Origin: an uncultured Gammaproteobacteria bacterium
GTDB taxonomy: Bacteria > Patescibacteriota > Microgenomatia > Daviesbacterales > UBA10151
NCBI GenBank assembly: GCA_964362195.1
Contig: CAYICZ010000004.1
Span: forward strand, 1 to 47,933
Length of the DNA stretch: 47,933 nt
Reading direction: 5' to 3'
Shown piece by piece: positions 5,421 through 14,650 of this stretch. Below the pieces are notes generated by a model. That model searched no databases. It had not been told where the DNA came from and saw nothing but the letters and a program-made list of their open reading frames with translations. The translations under genes and the position numbers were made by a program. Within the stretch, counting starts at the first letter, position 1. Each line of letters starts with the position of its first letter.

Positions 5421-6179
5421 ATGGTGCAGTTAGAATTAGATATTAGATTTCCAACAGATCGTAGCGATGAAGAAACCGTTTTTTATAGGAGCAGGATTTT
5501 AAGAGAATTTAAACAAGGGCAAAGAAGCAATTCCAAAAATTTTCAGACTTTCTCTTTTGAAGAAGCTATCTTAAAATTTTCCGCAAAAACTAACCTTTAT
5601 TTTAAAGAATTAAGTGATAATAGTGGAGATGATATTGATCAGTGGGTTGCCAGAGCTTTAGGTAAGGCCTTACCTTATTTTGCAGGTAAAAAGGGAAATT
5701 TTAGAAGCTTAGGGCATTTCTGGAAAACTTATTATGAAGATATAATTTATCATTTAGCTGTAGATAGGCACCGTTTAATAGTAGGACGGCAACATGAAAC
5801 TATACTTCCTTTTCCATCCAAAGAGGTTAGAGAACAGAGGCGAATTGGTTTTCAGCCACCCTTATTAAGAGAAGCTAGGGTAAATTTGGCAGGTCATGAT
5901 CTAAGCAAACAATTCCTGGCTGATTTACGAAACCCCAGAGGGGTTTTATTTGGTAAAGAAATTATTGGTTTAAACCCTGATTATGTTGTTGGGTTAGATA
6001 AACATAGAAAGAGAGCTTTAATTTTAAAATCTTTAAACCCTAGACTCTCGAGTAAAGAAATTGCGAAAATTTTGGAGGATGAAGGGTTTGGGACATTTGC
6101 AGATTCTGCAGTGAGAGTCTGGTTTAAAAGAGCTAAAGATCATCAGAGTACCGGGCTACTTACTACACAAGCTGTTTAA
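5421..6179 (+). CDS. Orphan ECF sigma factor-like protein
   Basis: C-terminal LDKHRKRALIL...LSSKEIAKIL...SAVRVWFKRAK resembles ECF region 4; promoter TTGATA-17-TATGAT-8-ATG. Confidence 0.55.
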   Translation: MVQLELDIRFPTDRSDEETVFYRSRILREFKQGQRSNSKNFQTFSFEEAILKFSAKTNLYFKELSDNSGDDIDQWVARALGKALPYFAGKKGNFRSLGHFWKTYYEDIIYHLAVDRHRLIVGRQHETILPFPSKEVREQRRIGFQPPLLREARVNLAGHDLSKQFLADLRNPRGVLFGKEIIGLNPDYVVGLDKHRKRALILKSLNPRLSSKEIAKILEDEGFGTFADSAVRVWFKRAKDHQSTGLLTTQAV

Positions 6180-6204
6180 CGGAAAATCCGGGTAGCCGTT
6201 GAGG
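6177..6204 (-). repeat. Stranded second copy of the fmt 3' end (LNGYPDFPL)
   Basis: 6181-6200 is identical to 7276-7295 (GGAAAATCCGGGTAGCCGTT); flanking mismatches are synonymous in the fmt frame. Confidence 0.85.
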
Positions 6205-6213
6205 GAACCCCTT

Positions 6214-7257
6214 TTAGGCAGCTTCAGCTAAATTTTCCAAATCCGGGAGGATAGGTTCCGAGATACCACTAACTTTTCTCCAGAAATACTGTTCTACATC
6301 CCAAATATAAACTGTTTCCGGTTTAAGACCATAAGTTTCAATCAGCCCTCTTTGGGCTTTGCCTGCTTCATAAGGATAGACCGCCCCCATTTTGTTATCT
6401 GTCCAGGGAAACATCTGCAGTTCCGGTACCTTTACTCCTTTGCCAAAAACTCTGCACAGAGAAGCTAAAGCCTGGATAACTGACCAGGGTGGCATTGCTT
6501 TATCAGCCTGGTTGTAGATATTTATACCCAAGATGTCGCTATTTTCGATCACATGCAAAATTAGTTCAGGGGTATCAAACGGGATGTTTTGTAGGATCGG
6601 GCGGCGGTAAGGGTCCAGTGATCTGACCATTTGTACCTCCTGAAGATTGAATTCTGGCGAAACATAGCGGTAATTGGTTAGCGGCAATCTTTGGGAGAAA
6701 GCTTCATTTTCCACCTGGATGGAGGTGATCTCTCTGATCGGGAGGAAACGTTCGGAAACGTCTGTTAATAATTTAAAAACCAGATCTCTAAACTCCGGAT
6801 CAGTATCAATTTGACCGGGATGTTTCAAATAAGGAAATTTTTCCTCCAGATCTTTTGGTACATGCACCTCTGGCCACCAAATGGTTTTTACCCCCATCTG
6901 TAAGGCAATACGCTTACCTTTTTTAATAGCTTCATTAATACAGAAATCTATTGTAGAATAATCGGCTTTGCCGTTGTAACCGTAGGCCACATCAAAAGGT
7001 ACGGCAATTCTAACGTTTCCAAAGGGTAAAGCAAGTATGTCGTTAATAGTCTGACGAAAGTTTAATCCTAACCAATTAATTCTTTTAGGACTAAGATTTA
7101 CCCCCATTTGATCAGGTGATAATTTTAAGCTGGTTTGGGTCGTTTCTTGAGGTTGATCATTTAGTCCCAGGCCTACTTCGGCAGTCAATAAAAGAGCAGC
7201 CATGCCTTTTAAAAAATCACGTCTGGTAGTCTGACTTTCTTTCGGTTCGATAGTCAT
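6214..7257 (-). CDS. Putative clan GH-A glycoside hydrolase-like protein with twin-arginine-like N-terminus
   Basis: TRRDFLK followed by a hydrophobic helix; VRIAVPF, QVENE (acid/base-like), VPELQ (nucleophile-like). Confidence 0.6.
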   Translation of the reverse strand: MTIEPKESQTTRRDFLKGMAALLLTAEVGLGLNDQPQETTQTSLKLSPDQMGVNLSPKRINWLGLNFRQTINDILALPFGNVRIAVPFDVAYGYNGKADYSTIDFCINEAIKKGKRIALQMGVKTIWWPEVHVPKDLEEKFPYLKHPGQIDTDPEFRDLVFKLLTDVSERFLPIREITSIQVENEAFSQRLPLTNYRYVSPEFNLQEVQMVRSLDPYRRPILQNIPFDTPELILHVIENSDILGINIYNQADKAMPPWSVIQALASLCRVFGKGVKVPELQMFPWTDNKMGAVYPYEAGKAQRGLIETYGLKPETVYIWDVEQYFWRKVSGISEPILPDLENLAEAA

Positions 7258-8171
7258 TTATTTGTTGATTTTAGGGGAAAATCCGGGTAGCCGTTCAGGA
7301 AATCTTTTAAAGATATAGCTTTTTTGCCTTCCATTTGCAACATATTTCCTGGTAGGAATTTAACTATGCGGGCTTGCCCGCTGGAGCCCGAAGGGCGAAA
7401 GCGGGTCCAAACCCCCGGCCAGGGGTAATATGCCCGAATCATTCTGTTTAATTTTTGTGGATCAGGTTGGTTATCAATGGGGAAGTAGCCACTTTCTCTG
7501 GTTAATTTATCACAAAATGTAGCGATCGCATCATTTTGTTTTTTCAAAGTTATCTTTCCTGCAGCAAAATCCTCAATAATTTTGGGTAAAACCTCAGCCG
7601 CTTGCTGAAACATTTTTTTACTCAAAGTATCAAAATTATCTTCATTAAAGAGCTCTAAAGTATCTTGATAAATAATGGGTCCATGATCCACTTCCTCATC
7701 CATTTTTATGATAGTTATTCCGGTTTCGCTGTCTCCATTTAATATAGCTTGCTGAATAGGTGAAGGACCTCTGTATTTGGGTAAGAGTGATGGGTGAACA
7801 TTCAAGCTTCCGAATTTTGGAATGTTTAAGATAAATTTTGGAATAATTTTGCCGAAAGAAGCAACTACAAATAGATCAGGCTTGAAATTTGAGATTTGGG
7901 ATTGGAAATTTTCATCCAGCTTTCCGGAAGTAAATATTGGTCCTTTGAAATAATTAGCTACAGCAGAATCTGAAGCAGTAACCACTGCCACAACCTCAAA
8001 ATTATCTTCCAGCGCCTGCAAGATAGGAATAACAAAAAGATCACTTCCAAAAAAGATAACTTTAATTTCGTTTAGTTTGATCTTTCCTAAATATTTTTCA
8101 ACCTCTTTCATATAAACCGGGATGATTTCTAAAGTAGAAAGGGGGACTTGTGGATGCTGCAGCTTTATCAT
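7254..8171 (-). CDS. fmt: Methionyl-tRNA formyltransferase
   Basis: IFFGS, LNVHPSLLPKYRGPSPIQ, VDHGPI, IRAYYPWPG; adjacent to def. Confidence 0.95.
   Translation of the reverse strand: MIKLQHPQVPLSTLEIIPVYMKEVEKYLGKIKLNEIKVIFFGSDLFVIPILQALEDNFEVVAVVTASDSAVANYFKGPIFTSGKLDENFQSQISNFKPDLFVVASFGKIIPKFILNIPKFGSLNVHPSLLPKYRGPSPIQQAILNGDSETGITIIKMDEEVDHGPIIYQDTLELFNEDNFDTLSKKMFQQAAEVLPKIIEDFAAGKITLKKQNDAIATFCDKLTRESGYFPIDNQPDPQKLNRMIRAYYPWPGVWTRFRPSGSSGQARIVKFLPGNMLQMEGKKAISLKDFLNGYPDFPLKSTNK
7368..7405. repeat. Palindromic element in frame in fmt (RFRPSGSSGQAR)
   Basis: CCCGCT-GGA-GCCC-GAA-GGGC-GAA-AGCGGG stem/internal loop/stem; GC-rich island in an AT-rich gene. Confidence 0.8.
7882..7909. repeat. 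Period-7 tract in fmt (NFQSQISNF)
   Basis: TTGAAAT TTGAGAT TTGGGAT TGGAAAT. Confidence 0.75.
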
Positions 8172-8719: not shown

Positions 8720-9067
8720 TTAAAAGCGTCTTTCTCCTCTTAGAAATTTCTGGGCTTTTGAGGCTGCGTTTGATAAAGGAGAACCTTTTTCTTTGAAATA
8801 CCAGATATGGCCAGCCAATCTGGCACCCTCCTTGGTAAATACTGAATAACCTTTCTCCTTATGAAGCAACTCGTCTGGAATGAGTCCTGCATCTACCCAA
8901 TCTCGAAGGGCATATCTGCTTATACGAGGAAGACGTTTTCTGATCCAGGATGGCTTAATAAAAGTAGGGGTTTTAGGTGAATCTAGTTCTTCCTCATATG
9001 CATTCAACTTATCATCTATTTCATCGAGTAACCATTCTTTAACTACTGTTTCTGGGCTATCAACCAT
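8720..9067 (-). CDS. MerR-type HTH domain protein
   Basis: ISRYALRDWVDAGLIP...KGYSVFT resembles the MerR HTH and wing. Confidence 0.6.
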   Translation of the reverse strand: MVDSPETVVKEWLLDEIDDKLNAYEEELDSPKTPTFIKPSWIRKRLPRISRYALRDWVDAGLIPDELLHKEKGYSVFTKEGARLAGHIWYFKEKGSPLSNAASKAQKFLRGERRF

Positions 9068-11404: not shown

Positions 11405-12469
11405 ATGTTTGGTAAGATCTGGTCATATTTTTCACATGATATAGGAATAGATTTAGGTACTGTTAATACTCTTGTTTTAGTTAAAGGTAAAGGGATAGTA
11501 ATCAGGGAACCAACCGTGGTGGCACTTCATAAAAAAACTAGGCAGGTTTTGGCAATCGGGACAGAGGCCAAAAGAATGCTGGGCAGGACCCCTGCTGCAA
11601 TTGAGGCAGTGAGGCCTCTTCGAAACGGGGTAATTTCTGATTTTGATACAACAGAGGCCATGCTTAGATATTTTATTCATAAGGTTCACGAAAGTCCGGC
11701 AGGTTCCAAATGGTATTCTCTTCCAAAAATTCCAAAGCCAAGGATTGTTGTTGGTATTCCATCAGGAGTGACAGAGGTGGAAAGAAGGGCTGTTCAGGAT
11801 GCCTGTTTATCTGCCGGAGCCAGGGAGGCATATTTAATTGAAGAGCCAATGGCTGCGGCAATCGGGGCCAAACTGCCGGTTGAAGATCCGGAAGGAGTCA
11901 TGATTGTAGATATTGGTGGAGGTACATGCGAAATTGCTATTATTTCCTTAGGAGGAATGGTAATAAACAGATCAATCAGGGTGGCCGGGGACGGGATGGA
12001 TGAAGCGATTGTAAACTATATGCGGACCAGGTATGGCATGCTGATTGGTGAGCGGACAGCCGAAGAGGTCAAAATGGAAATAGGTTCGGCATATCCTGTG
12101 GGCAAAGATGATTTGGCAACTGTGGTGCGGGGCAGGGACCTATCAACAGGTCTGCCTAAATCCTTAAAATTAAGCGCATCAGAAATCAGGGAGGCATTAA
12201 CACCAATAATTTCCGAGATAATAGGGGCAATTCAGGAAGTTTTAGAAGAAACTCCGCCGGAACTTTTAACAGATATAGTTGAGCGGGGGATATTTTTGAC
12301 AGGAGGAGGGGCTTTAATTTCTGGTTTGGATAAAAAAATTGCCGAGGAAACAAAACTGCCGGTTTATATTGCAGATGATCCGCTGACCACAGTTGTCAGA
12401 GGCTGTGGGGAAGTCTTAAATAATCTGGATTTACTATCTAAAGTAAGGGTAACCGGCGGATTAAGATAA
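11405..12469 (+). CDS. mreB: Rod shape-determining protein MreB
   Basis: IGIDLGT, EPMAAAIGA, VDIGGGT, LTGGGAL. Confidence 0.97.
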   Translation: MFGKIWSYFSHDIGIDLGTVNTLVLVKGKGIVIREPTVVALHKKTRQVLAIGTEAKRMLGRTPAAIEAVRPLRNGVISDFDTTEAMLRYFIHKVHESPAGSKWYSLPKIPKPRIVVGIPSGVTEVERRAVQDACLSAGAREAYLIEEPMAAAIGAKLPVEDPEGVMIVDIGGGTCEIAIISLGGMVINRSIRVAGDGMDEAIVNYMRTRYGMLIGERTAEEVKMEIGSAYPVGKDDLATVVRGRDLSTGLPKSLKLSASEIREALTPIISEIIGAIQEVLEETPPELLTDIVERGIFLTGGGALISGLDKKIAEETKLPVYIADDPLTTVVRGCGEVLNNLDLLSKVRVTGGLR

Positions 12470-13104
12470 TGAAAAAAGCTGTCCTGTTTGATATTGATGG
12501 AGTTTTGATTGATTCTTGGGATTTTGTCTTTGTGGCAGTTAAACATGCGCTAAAAAAGCCAGGTCACACTATTTCTGAGGAAGTAATAGTAAGCGCTATG
12601 GGAGGAAGGGCCCTTCTGGATTTTTATAAATTTTTGCTTCCAAAAGAAGATTATAAACTGATTGCCAAAAGCCACCAAAAATACCAGCAGGATAAATTTG
12701 ATTTGGGGAAACCATTTCCAAATGCCAAAAAGATTTTAAAAAAGTTAAAGTCCCAGGGATTTTTAATGGCTGCCATAAGTAATAGGACTAAAATAAGTTT
12801 AAAAACAACTTTGGATAGGGCAGAATTTTCCCCGTTCTTTGATATTGTTTTATCTGCAGAGGATGTTTTAAACCCCAAGCCTCACCCTGAGCATGTTTTG
12901 GCTGCATTAACTTATTTAAAAGTAAAACCCGCAAACTCATTTATGATCGGGGATACAAAAGATGATATTTTGGCAGGAAAATCTGCCAAGGTTAAAACAA
13001 TCGGAGTAACCTATGGCTTTGCCGGAAAAACAATTACTGACCATAATCCGGATTTTGTAATTGATGATTTGGAAGAATTAATAAAAGTGTTAAGATACAC
13101 CTAA
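12469..13104 (+). CDS. HAD-IA hydrolase (PpaX/Gph-like)
   Basis: FDIDGVL, ISN, KPHP, GDTKDD motifs. Confidence 0.9.
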   Translation: MKKAVLFDIDGVLIDSWDFVFVAVKHALKKPGHTISEEVIVSAMGGRALLDFYKFLLPKEDYKLIAKSHQKYQQDKFDLGKPFPNAKKILKKLKSQGFLMAAISNRTKISLKTTLDRAEFSPFFDIVLSAEDVLNPKPHPEHVLAALTYLKVKPANSFMIGDTKDDILAGKSAKVKTIGVTYGFAGKTITDHNPDFVIDDLEELIKVLRYT

Positions 13105-13130
13105 TGTTAAAGATACCTTTCTACGATCCA
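13104..13130 (+). pseudogene. Stranded former 5' end of pyrD (MLKIPFYDP)
   Basis: ATG TTA AAG ATA CCT TTC TAC GAT CCA versus pyrD ATG CTT AAA ACA CCC TTT TAC GAT CCG (13568-13594); overlaps the HAD stop (TAATG) and has its own TGnTAAGAT. Confidence 0.85.
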
Positions 13131-13216
13131 TTAGATTTTTAGTTTATCTTTTGCCAATTTAATGGTTTGATCTTGAAAGAATTTTTTGACCTTTTCCCAG
13201 GAAACAGAAGTAACAT
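13131..13216 (-). pseudogene. Internally deleted remnant of a probable AbiEii-type nucleotidyltransferase toxin
   Basis: ATG directly after the DUF6922-like stop, then out-of-frame VSWEKVKKFFQDQTIKLAKDKLKI*, resembling the C-terminus of such toxins as I recall them. Confidence 0.55.
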
Positions 13217-13525
13217 TTAGTAAGGCCAGAGTCGCATCGGTGGATTTGGGAATCCCTTTTTAAAATACATTATCTCTCGCTTGGGCATCTTAAAAAATTT
13301 ACCCCAGTATGTTGCGGCCCGTTTTGATAATCCGCGGCGATCTCGAAGAGTTTGTTTAATTATCTCCTCATCGAAATTTCTGAAGAGCCACTTAGTAGCT
13401 CGCTCATTTCCGAAGTTTAGGATTCTTTCGATAATGTAGTTAGGGTGGGTTTTCTTTAGATCTATTTTATTAAAATCTACGTCCCAAAAATAATGTTCTA
13501 AGAAAATTGGAAGCCTTTTCTGCAT
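13217..13525 (-). CDS. DUF6922-like protein (putative antitoxin partner)
   Basis: LEHYFWDVDFNKIDL, YIIERILNFGN, WL, LS.R...YW. Confidence 0.75.
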   Translation of the reverse strand: MQKRLPIFLEHYFWDVDFNKIDLKKTHPNYIIERILNFGNERATKWLFRNFDEEIIKQTLRDRRGLSKRAATYWGKFFKMPKREIMYFKKGFPNPPMRLWPY

Positions 13526-13567
13526 ACTTATATTTTAGCTTAATTTAAGGTAGAATTACAGGTGAAA

Positions 13568-14650
13568 ATGCTTAAAACACCCTTTTACGATCCGAATAAG
13601 AGTTATGAGGAAAATTATGATCAGGGGCCGTTTGGGGCATTTGCAGACGGAGTTGATTTAAGGACAGACGAAGAACCAAAATATGAATTTTTAGGTTTTA
13701 AGATTAATACCCCTTTTGGAATTCCCTCCGGTCCTTTAGTTAATTCTAAATTCTGTAAAGCCGCTTTTGAAAAAGGATTTAATGTAATTCATTATAAAAC
13801 CAGAAGATCTGGTGAGTTTCCCTGCAACCAATTTCCTAATGTTTTATTTGTAGAAACTGACGGGGATTTAACTTTAGAAAAAGCAAAAAAATCTCTTAAA
13901 GGGAGTAATATTGCTCCTGATGATTTATCAAAGATAAGTATTACCAACTCTTTCGGTAATCCATCACCTGATGCAAAAGTTTGGCAGGAGGATATGAAAA
14001 AGGCAGTGAAAGCAGCAGGATACGGTCAGCTGTTGATTGCTTCAGTTGTGGGAACAATTAAAGAGGGTTTTTCTGCCGAGGATTATTACGGCGATTTTGC
14101 GCTTGCTGCAAAATATGCAAAAGAGGCTGGAGTAAAAGTTATTGAAGTTAATTTATCCTGTCCGAATGTGGCATCAGAAGGTGTTTTATGCTACTCTGCT
14201 GATGCAGTAGAGGCTATCTGTAAAAAAGTAAGAGAAGTAATTGGTGATAAAGTTAAACTCCTGGCAAAAGTGGGTTATTTCTCCTCTGATCAACAAATTC
14301 TCCTGGAAGATATTATCAAAAGAATAAATTCATATATTGATGGAATTTCAGCAATTAATACAATTCCGGCTCCGGTGGTTGATGAAAATGGGAAGCAAGC
14401 TTTACCTGGAGAAGGAAGACTTTCAGCAGGGATTTGTGGAGCAGGGATTAAATGGGCAGGGCTGGATATGGTTAGGAGATTGCGATTAACGATAAACGAT
14501 AAACGATTAACGATTATAGGAGTAGGTGGAGTGACAAAGCCTGAGGATTATTTTGAGTATATTAATGCCGGGGCTGATGTAGTCCAATCTGCAACAGGAG
14601 CTATGTGGAACCCTGAACTTGCTCAAGAAATCAAACAACTGGCGAAATAA
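13568..14650 (+). CDS. pyrD: Dihydroorotate dehydrogenase-like FMN enzyme
   Basis: YKT, EVNLSCPN, LAK, AINT, IIGVGGV, GADVVQ; convergent with pyrCEF; alternative GTG start at 13562. Confidence 0.85.
   Translation: MLKTPFYDPNKSYEENYDQGPFGAFADGVDLRTDEEPKYEFLGFKINTPFGIPSGPLVNSKFCKAAFEKGFNVIHYKTRRSGEFPCNQFPNVLFVETDGDLTLEKAKKSLKGSNIAPDDLSKISITNSFGNPSPDAKVWQEDMKKAVKAAGYGQLLIASVVGTIKEGFSAEDYYGDFALAAKYAKEAGVKVIEVNLSCPNVASEGVLCYSADAVEAICKKVREVIGDKVKLLAKVGYFSSDQQILLEDIIKRINSYIDGISAINTIPAPVVDENGKQALPGEGRLSAGICGAGIKWAGLDMVRRLRLTINDKRLTIIGVGGVTKPEDYFEYINAGADVVQSATGAMWNPELAQEIKQLAK
14483..14517. repeat. Period-7 tract in pyrD (RLTINDKRLTI)
   Basis: CGATTAA CGATAAA CGATAAA CGATTAA CGATTAT. Confidence 0.9.

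Follow-up and report, generated by a model that had tools for sequence, protein, structure and literature searches.

How does a compact genome with almost no intergenic DNA gain accessory genes while the genes beside them stay intact? The question is raised by the pyrD locus on a contig of 47,933 nucleotides (CAYICZ010000004.1 of GenBank assembly GCA_964362195.1; this whole stretch is hereafter called the window) from a member of the Daviesbacterales (Patescibacteriota). The window is contig C4 of a draft genome, here called G000, of 815 kb in 38 contigs that is 100% complete by marker genes; other G numbers denote its relatives, and the survey set comprised 96 genomes of the order. Directly behind a HAD-family hydrolase gene lie the first nine codons of a pyrD start that is stranded there. 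The working start of pyrD, a diverged copy of the same codons, follows only after a 437-base insert. Within this insert a DUF6922 gene is intact, an AbiEii-type nucleotidyltransferase gene survives only as its 3′ end, and a divergent leader of 42 bases precedes pyrD. The locus offers a clean, datable example of such a gain, in which incoming DNA would have swapped the end of a host gene and stranded the old end as a short repeat, leaving the neighbours undamaged.

The stranded pyrD start and the inserted module

The ATG of the stranded copy (13104-13106) overlaps the stop codon of the HAD gene by a shared A (TAATG), and the open reading frame (ORF) of this stub reads MLKIPFYDPLDF up to a TAG terminator at 13140-13142. 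The working gene begins with the ATG at 13568, and its protein opens MLKTPFYDPNK. Over the nine codons the two copies are identical at 20/27 bases and 8/9 residues. Of the codon changes between them, five are synonymous (codons 2, 3, 5, 6 and 9) and one is not (ACA/ATA); an identical 8-base run, TACGATCC, occupies bases 19-26 of both. An independent repeat search returned the same pair (D1: 13103-13129 versus 13567-13593, spacing 464). The similarity stops at 13130, and the adjoining TTA (13131-13133) is the reverse-complemented stop codon of a minus-strand frame. A preliminary description of this DNA had reported the coupling to the HAD stop, the same codon changes and 8-bp run, and the end of similarity exactly at the stop codon of a minus-strand remnant, all of which we reproduced. 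Its statement that the stub has its own −10 element was not supported: the sole promoter-like site preceding the stub (13019-13047, 9/12) falls within the HAD gene. Promoter-like sites, by which we mean a consensus match only, number 4 in the region versus 2.3 ± 1.2 in shuffled sequences.

The stranded start is real. It lies exactly where pyrD starts in G011, the relative with the closest pyrD (80% identity), overlapping the HAD stop as there. In a scan of the 882 ORFs of the whole G000 genome for terminal 9-mers recurring within 4 kb on the same strand (at least 8/9 matches), the wrong-side controls gave 0 matches for C-termini, searched upstream, and paralog families alone for N-termini, searched downstream.

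G011 also provides the empty site. There HAD and pyrD overlap directly, stop with start, in the sequence TGATG, and no DUF6922 gene is present. The stretch from mreB to pyrD was compared between G000 and G011 gene by gene, since the insert spoils a global nucleotide alignment. Nothing is missing from G000 at the joint, and the resident 27 bases are present twice. Relatives with HAD and pyrD directly coupled, which the preliminary description had proposed to look for, thus exist, and the G011 allele is closer to the stub (24/27) than to the working start (21/27). In a census of 30 pyrD loci, one per genome, pyrD usually lies 3′ of mreB, with or without a HAD gene between them. The order mreB-HAD-pyrD is found in 10/30 loci, G000 included, and 9/30 have it without an insert. 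At eight loci pyrD follows mreB within 19-160 bases; at four, 700-1100 bases separate the two genes; and other genes occupy the slot at five. The DUF6922 module adjoins pyrD at four loci, namely in G018, G048, G104 and G000, the last being also counted under mreB-HAD-pyrD. The slot between mreB and pyrD seems to be a hotspot for small modules. Three of the four slots of 700-1100 bases hold another small pair, read from translations as AbrB/MazE-type and Fic/Doc-type genes (L065 in G006, L069 in G069 and L080 in G070, with 700-760 bases between mreB and pyrD); no pyrD stub was noticed in these three slots.

AbiE is a type IV toxin-antitoxin pair in which the toxin is an AbiEii nucleotidyltransferase (PF08843). 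The minus-strand frame that abuts codon 9 of the stub ends in VSWEKVKKFFQDQTIKLAKDKLKI and a stop codon, and is in a different frame from the DUF6922 gene. By tblastn it is 78% identical to residues 164-190 of an intact gene of G048, whose product matches Pfam AbiEii PF08843 (E 2e-14). In G048, G104 and G110, DUF6922 homologs of 100-103 amino acids (aa) are followed by a whole transferase gene of about 190-213 aa with the C-terminus W(E/D)EVKKFF..Q.IKLAK.KLKI. The G018 transferase copy is internally deleted, and in this truncated form gives no AbiEii match in Pfam. The DUF6922 gene is single-copy in the G000 genome, and a search of metagenome contigs for nearer relatives of the G000 module yielded three loci, the best 59% identical. 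The DUF6922 subtypes nearest to that of G000 are those of G106 and G098 (66-68% identical), which sit at other loci. No recombinase, integrase or transposase gene is present in the 437-base insert, whose sole genes are DUF6922 and the transferase remnant.

Judged from these matches, a two-gene module of toxin-antitoxin type occupies the insert in decayed form: its transferase half is nearly lost and its DUF6922 half is kept. The cassette with a minus-strand remnant that had been described beforehand is therefore present, but it is not an anonymous remnant. As in AbiE pairs, the genes form a two-gene operon, the second gene being of the AbiEii family in intact relatives, and they are patchily distributed, often decayed and found in many contexts. 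In contrast to AbiE, the first gene of the module encodes a 100-aa DUF6922 protein and not an AbiEi-type regulator: this upstream partner matches only DUF6922 in Pfam, with nothing in NCBIfam and no AbiEi-type match. NCBIfam likewise holds no name for DUF6922, for the transferase or for the insert beside fmt described below. In G000 the transferase is, moreover, cut to 27 codons. A toxin-antitoxin function of the module is predicted from the Pfam family alone. The leader would have come in with the module, and it may have a promoter role: a promoter-like site at 13507-13534 (9/12 consensus match) ends inside it.

Origin of the working start and its counterparts in other genera

A quick maximum-likelihood tree of pyrD was built from 35 rows, 33 genes of the G000 type and two distant ones, with the two G033 copies omitted. 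Clade I comprises 8 rows (G000, G011, G041, G054, G068, G006, G088 and G085) with a Shimodaira-Hasegawa-like approximate likelihood ratio test (SH-aLRT) support of 100. Clade II comprises 25 rows (SH-aLRT 99) and holds all other module-linked pyrD genes, those of G018 and G048, which are sisters, and of G104. Among the clade-I genes only that of G000 has the module, which is absent from the 7 other genomes of the clade. Over pyrD bases 76-312, clade I scores 177-194/237 in six of seven rows, and clade II at most 158. The seventh clade-I row, G085, scores 78, which we attribute to an indel in the ungapped count. The sequence in front of this clade-I body resembles clade II instead. Over the 30 bases upstream of the working ATG the best match is G056, a clade-II genome (23/30), followed by G104 (21/30), while the other 30 genomes reach 4-14/30. 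The first 27 bases of the working start have their best match in G056 as well (Table 1), and the 42-base leader can be aligned across G000, G018, G048, G104 and G056. Bases 28-75 are conserved everywhere (32-43/48).

With G011 as the outgroup, 5/7 of the differences between the two copies fall on the working-start lineage and 2/7 on the stub. The five changes of the working copy are all synonymous, and three of them are common to G056. The locus is mosaic, and from the clade matches and this polarity we read the working start and its leader as imported together with the module from a clade-II-like relative; the working start is probably foreign, and the stub probably the resident start. As for G056 itself, its pyrD (L063) has a module-type leader in the 120 bases before the gene and no adjacent DUF6922 gene; its DUF6922 module is found on a different contig, where 43 bases from the 3′ end of a neighbour are repeated on its flanks.

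Second copies of a pyrD start also occur in other genera. A 35-residue pyrD N-terminal query against the 96 genomes, which is blind to a nine-codon stub (G000 itself gives one match), found them in G048 and G104; a third double match, in G068 (E 0.22), was taken as chance. In G104 the module is intact, and MKNQPFYDPTKSYEEN stands directly after the transferase stop; the stub has 16 codons, and its ATG overlaps the mreB stop (ATGA). The two halves of this locus are on two contigs that overlap by ~140 bases inside the transferase gene, from which we infer their adjacency. The G104 copies are 32/35 identical over the repeat (bases 13-48) and differ at 7/12 of the first bases. The G048 stub comprises about 26-30 codons with a leader and five DUF6922 codons; its pyrD part is identical to the working copy (0 differences over ~88 bases), and its leader differs at several positions. 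The repeat is ~36 bases long in G104 and ~140 bases in G048. The joint lies in a shared TTTAAA in G048 and shares at least TTA in G104. The three genera hence show three joint positions, at codons 9 (G000), 16 (G104) and 26-30 (G048). In G018 the module adjoins pyrD and a stub is absent. Behind a different pyrD-type gene, 32% identical, the module is also present in G110 and G111; in G110 the mreB stop and the transferase stop are 5 bases apart. A regular-expression search (PF[YF][DN][PIN]) found no further stubs in the collected loci, most of which had flanks of 1.5 kb.

Repeats also bracket this module away from pyrD. Five of the 27 DUF6922 loci of the order have clear direct repeats around it (G056:C5, G048, G064, G072 and G073), and two more gave repeat hits; with G000 and G104 the clear total is 7/28 places. 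The repeats are identical at about 43/43 bases in G056:C5 and about 29/30 in G072. At loci other than pyrD the module joints lie 0-70 bases from the transferase stop. In G064 (L053, about 670-750 and 2392-2470) and G073 (L057), repeats of 70-100 bases bracket the module together with another gene, and the left copy follows what appears by eye to be the 3′ end of a 23S ribosomal RNA gene.

Beyond the module, G018 and G048 carry a further 3′-end gene remnant, ending in KGYKNIEDFRGKLKSIE in G018 (L026 8433-8507) and in EDFRGKLKAIS in G048 (L044 about 2500-2545). Short-peptide tblastn and a regular-expression search over the collected loci and the G000 genome returned those two remnants only. In G048 five DUF6922 codons stand in front of the remnant and are fused to it, pointing to an earlier module copy since deleted. 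The large ORF between mreB and the module in G018 contains a run of N, masked or unassembled sequence (L026 about 12070-12200).

Proposed history and competing explanations

The origin that we favour, with moderate confidence, is import from a diverged relative via short pyrD homology with one illegitimate joint. In the ancestor, mreB, HAD and pyrD would have been consecutive genes, with an overlap of the HAD stop and the pyrD ATG as in G011, and the donor, a diverged relative, would have carried the DUF6922 and AbiEii-type pair already head-to-head with pyrD. The first joint would have used the conserved pyrD 5′ homology, with a crossover between base 18 and base 75. The second would have been illegitimate, with the transferase gene on the incoming DNA joined at its stop codon to the resident pyrD at base 27. 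The outcome would be an insert with imperfect copies of the gene start in direct orientation on its two sides, and no host gene broken. The native start would be left coupled to HAD as a dead 12-codon ORF, and pyrD would now be run from an imported leader, ribosome-binding site and first codons. Afterwards the transferase, the toxin-type member, would have been deleted to 27 codons and DUF6922 left intact. A gene of an essential pathway would in this way have lost its translational coupling to HAD and come to depend on a leader from a selfish-type module. Linear incoming DNA, joined by homology-facilitated illegitimate recombination with a duplicating joint, and a closed circle integrated by a single crossover appear about equally plausible. 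Where genes overlap or abut, any joint that fell beyond the replaced end would disrupt an adjoining gene, so that the survivors' joints would lie inside the end and give stubs.

Several observations weigh against this history. No microhomology was seen at the illegitimate joint of G000, as judged without the donor flank, and classical homology-facilitated illegitimate recombination, as described in the available text of the source, yields deletion and not duplication (PMC3240628). The repeat has only 27 bases, so the allele comparisons rest on few sites, and the stub is 24/27 identical to G011 but also 23/27 identical to four clade-II genomes. The conservation of bases 28-75 leaves no clade signal there by which to locate the crossover. 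The sole significant max-chi-square breakpoint among G000, G011 and G018 is at base 823, away from the 5′ end. The 5′ signal of that method comprises 6/8 informative sites in a window chosen post hoc; this was too short a signal, and a 5′ breakpoint based on it was dropped. Native and foreign were judged by gene trees, without a species tree, in a region that is mosaic otherwise too. All three pyrD joints lie 0-4 bases from the transferase stop, which a single random illegitimate event in each lineage does not predict. The ComEC and DprA uptake-family genes of G000 say little in favour of import, because both families also match 10/14 control genomes, Escherichia coli included.

Insertion in place with target duplication, in which 27 resident bases would be doubled, for instance by fill-in of staggered breaks, and the copies would diverge later, is unlikely in our view. 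It agrees with the nearly identical flanking repeats elsewhere (G056:C5, G072 and G048, and the 32/35 match in G104), and the module is old enough to have lost its transferase, hence divergence of the copies is expected. The divergence is, however, mainly on the copy under selection and not on the free-drifting stub: duplication in place predicts a working-copy share of 0.18, for which P(≥5/7) = 0.003. Three of the five changes, as noted above, are common to G056, which is also the best leader match. The G104 copies, which differ at 7/12 first bases, differ at only 3/35 after them, so the incoming DNA would have borne foreign first codons there.

We consider the reverse direction equally unlikely. 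Here the module and pyrD would be resident, with mreB abutting the transferase stop, and HAD with nine donor pyrD codons would have arrived from the left, through a homologous anchor in mreB and an illegitimate joint at the transferase stop. With the stops only 5 bases apart, as in G110, a viable joint must fall at the stop, which would explain why three stubs abut it. The stub lengths (9, 16 and about 26-30 codons) also vary like random donor ends, and the HAD of G000 is just 44% identical to that of G011. The last point is accounted for by G011, which forms a long branch of its own (1.06). In the HAD tree, six HADs of clade-II genomes group to the exclusion of G000 (support 91), which otherwise has no supported placement; one of its rows (G018) is a wrongly picked ORF of 1107 aa. 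Two events would, moreover, be required, and the module is in none of the 7 other clade-I genomes.

Much less probable is the arrival of the module with a complete second pyrD, followed by deletion of the old copy to nine codons. Two pyrD copies do exist in G033, and deletion is frequent here, the transferase being cut internally in G018 and almost gone in G000. Against it, the G000 pyrD body is of clade I like the module-free HAD-pyrD genomes, whereas all other module-linked pyrD genes are of clade II. We regard as still less probable a site-specific integration by a recombinase acting in trans, of an element with a surrogate gene start at an attachment (att) core TACGATCC. The identical 8-base run does end both copies, with leftward divergence as in attL/attR. 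The run is nevertheless Y-D-P coding sequence (TAYGAYCC) found in 30/32 other genomes, G099 and G032 excepted, the joints are elsewhere in G104 (codon 16) and G048 (codons 26-30), the 437-base insert has no recombinase gene, and the repeats range from 27 to about 140 bases; given the conserved coding in most relatives and the differing joints, the att-core reading was rejected. Least credible of all is chance similarity or an assembly chimera, which a draft of 38 contigs might invite, but which is opposed by the position of the stub exactly at the G011 pyrD start, by 0 non-paralog matches in the wrong-side controls and by a like architecture in two other genera, assembled independently.

Insertion with long target duplication was reportedly first described by Nobusato et al. 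in 2000. Such insertions concern restriction-modification gene complexes flanked by duplicated target, with no mechanism established there; they include 46-base repeats in Haemophilus influenzae that overlap a gene 3′ end, and most cases are in naturally competent species (Furuta, Abe and Kobayashi 2010, PMC2853133). The likeness to the G000 locus lies in a small selfish-type complex without integrase or transposase that is absent from the related genome, in a single-copy target of the empty genome that aligns with both flanking repeats, and in variable repeats that exceed transposon duplications and may overlap a gene 3′ end (PMC2853133). In G000, too, we found an empty site, repeats aligning to the single-copy target and an insert of less than 20 kb without integrase. 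Unlike in those cases, the repeat of 27 bases, 74% identical with an identical run of 8, is below the 30 bases used there as a limit (PMC2853133), which the G104 and G048 repeats exceed. The cargo is a DUF6922 and AbiEii-type pair and not a restriction-modification system, and the insert brings a leader and first codons for the target gene. Under target duplication both copies should come from the target genome; one G000 copy looks foreign, weakly so in view of the few sites (P = 0.003 and the G056 match).

Homology-facilitated illegitimate recombination in transformable bacteria was reportedly described by de Vries and Wackernagel (2002), Prudhomme et al. (2002) and Meier and Wackernagel (2003). 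The accounts at hand give insertion plus deletion with 3-10 bases of microhomology; like the history favoured here, the process has one homologous anchor, one illegitimate joint and no mobile-element enzyme (PMC3240628, PMC5361080, PMC2884548). The G000 locus likewise has foreign DNA continuous with the homologous anchor (clade-II-like leader and 27 bases, clade-I body from about base 76). It differs in that resident sequence is doubled and none is deleted beside the insert, with no clear microhomology.

Integration of a re-circularised fragment by a single crossover gave homology duplication in 56/60 E. coli clones, over 109-950 bases (Amarir-Bouhram et al. 2011, PMC3240628). The product, as far as that source describes it, is an insert flanked by a doubled homologous stretch, as here; it was obtained for a plasmid during E. 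coli conjugation, where the homology was far longer, and a circular form of the DUF6922 module would be hypothetical. Loci for type VI secretion system effector-immunity pairs, Rhs and contact-dependent inhibition form displacement arrays with orphaned 3′ pieces (Kirchberger et al. 2017, PMC5361080). There, too, in the part of the account at hand, a module anchored in a conserved part displaces a variable end and an orphan remains, but the orphan is functional (an immunity gene) and the anchor belongs to the system (PMC5361080). In G000 a housekeeping gene serves as the anchor, and what is orphaned is a dead nine-codon stub.

The process is not new in kind, since repeats around restriction-modification genes and one-ended recombination are already described; what is new is the cargo, the host type, the swapped expression signals and one housekeeping gene start hit repeatedly in several genera. 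Our literature search found no description for toxin-antitoxin-type modules, the matches, by their titles, concerning restriction-modification, insertion sequences or integrative elements. It likewise returned no description from Candidate Phyla Radiation genomes and no mention of DUF6922. As a tentative extension, which we find rather doubtful, the module might be a mobile cassette that needs no recombinase and moves from genus to genus by means of a homology arm of its own (leader and first pyrD codons), re-targets pyrD starts, takes over their expression signals and strands the old starts. The other repeat-flanked inserts of G000 would then have arisen by the same route, which would be a main one by which such reduced genomes gain accessory genes and keep their packed host genes unbroken.

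The fmt scar and other terminus duplications in G000

The preliminary description had set the pyrD scar beside one at fmt, and this companion scar is real. The fmt product ends in LNGYPDFPLKSTNK and a stop; the inserted ORF is joined to fmt by an ATGA overlap, and the stranded end, LNGYPDFPLNSLCSK with its stop, stands ten bases past the stop of the inserted ORF. The two repeats are 24/27 identical. Where they differ, at three bases, G011 has the base of the stranded copy twice and once a base found in neither. No counterpart of the inserted ORF adjoins fmt in G011, G023 or G006.

The 9-mer scan on the expected side, with paralog families and one internally repetitive protein set aside, found six terminus duplications in the 815 kb. 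The pyrD case alone came from N-termini, searched upstream; the other five, fmt included, came from C-termini, searched downstream, and the repeats of the six are 27-57 bases long. The two on contig C7 are at C7:385-1390 and C7:4973-5735. The proposed recurrence of such scars is thereby borne out, by four further terminus duplications in G000 and two more stranded pyrD starts in other genera, and the interpretation given to them in the preliminary description is supported. Its scar length of about 27 bp is right for pyrD and fmt, while the overall range is 27 to about 140 bases; the shared core that it offered as a possible common motif is not one, the 8-base run being conserved Y-D-P coding and the G104 and G048 joints lying elsewhere. 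Stubs of this kind can be found by a simple scan; they reveal where and in which direction an insertion occurred and, in some cases, the lineage of the donor.

Table 1. Features of the pyrD and fmt loci in the window, and further terminus duplications on other contigs of G000
Feature	Position	Strand	Basis or remark
HAD-family hydrolase gene	12469..13104	+	Pfam HAD_2, E 2.1e-36; stop TAA 13102-13104
Stranded old pyrD start	13104..13142	+	nine pyrD codons (13104-13130, MLKIPFYDP), 3 insert-read codons and TAG
AbiEii-type nucleotidyltransferase 3′ remnant	13131..13214	-	stop 13131-13133 and last 27 codons; remainder deleted
Intact DUF6922 gene, 102 aa	13217..13525	-	Pfam PF21956, E 6.1e-15
Divergent leader between DUF6922 and pyrD	13526..13567	.	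supplies AGGTGA ahead of pyrD ATG
Working pyrD start (MLKTPFYDP), second repeat copy	13568..13594	+	best match G056, 25/27, among 32 genomes
pyrD, dihydroorotate dehydrogenase family	13568..14650	+	Pfam DHO_dh, E 1.7e-23
Stranded old fmt 3′ end	6156..6203	-	repeat comparison with fmt
Inserted ORF, 347 aa	6214..7257	-	between working and stranded fmt ends; weak match to a twin-arginine translocation (TAT) signal, no family
Working fmt copy of 27-base repeat	7272..7298	-	fmt = 7254-8171; Pfam Formyl_trans_N
DNA polymerase A gene end, then 91-aa ORF, DUF4258 and MqsA-like gene (below Pfam cut-off)	C7		C-terminus scan
GT4 glycosyltransferase end, then Gp49/HigB-type and HTH_3 genes	C7		C-terminus scan
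AbiEii-family gene end, then DUF4143 AAA ATPase	C22:2250-5569		C-terminus scan
45-base repeat around about 100 bases	C2:2350-2540		C-terminus scan

The pyrD product scores under all NCBIfam equivalog cut-offs, and the neighbours of the gene encode an amidohydrolase, a phosphoribosyltransferase and an orotidine 5′-monophosphate decarboxylase. In the 3′ quarter of pyrD (window 14391-14650, bases 824-1080) G000 sides with G018 at 38/68 informative sites, compared with 59/253 before it. The max-chi-square breakpoint at base 823 (permutation p < 1e-4) may reflect a second mosaic tract or a G011-specific change. The amidohydrolase gene overlaps the pyrD end in G000, and G011 is without it. In G037 the pyrD match on C70 (L013/L025) is split on one strand between residues 3-109 and 134-357, which points to a gene that is broken or frameshifted. 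For all the divergence of the HAD proteins of G000 and G011, both protein ends and the last 60 bases are very similar. Two further ORFs of the window are missing from the syntenic part of G011: one of 252 aa without a family on the plus strand (5421-6179), beside the fmt-side insert, and one of 115 aa with a weak MerR match on the minus strand (8720-9067), between def and the next gene.

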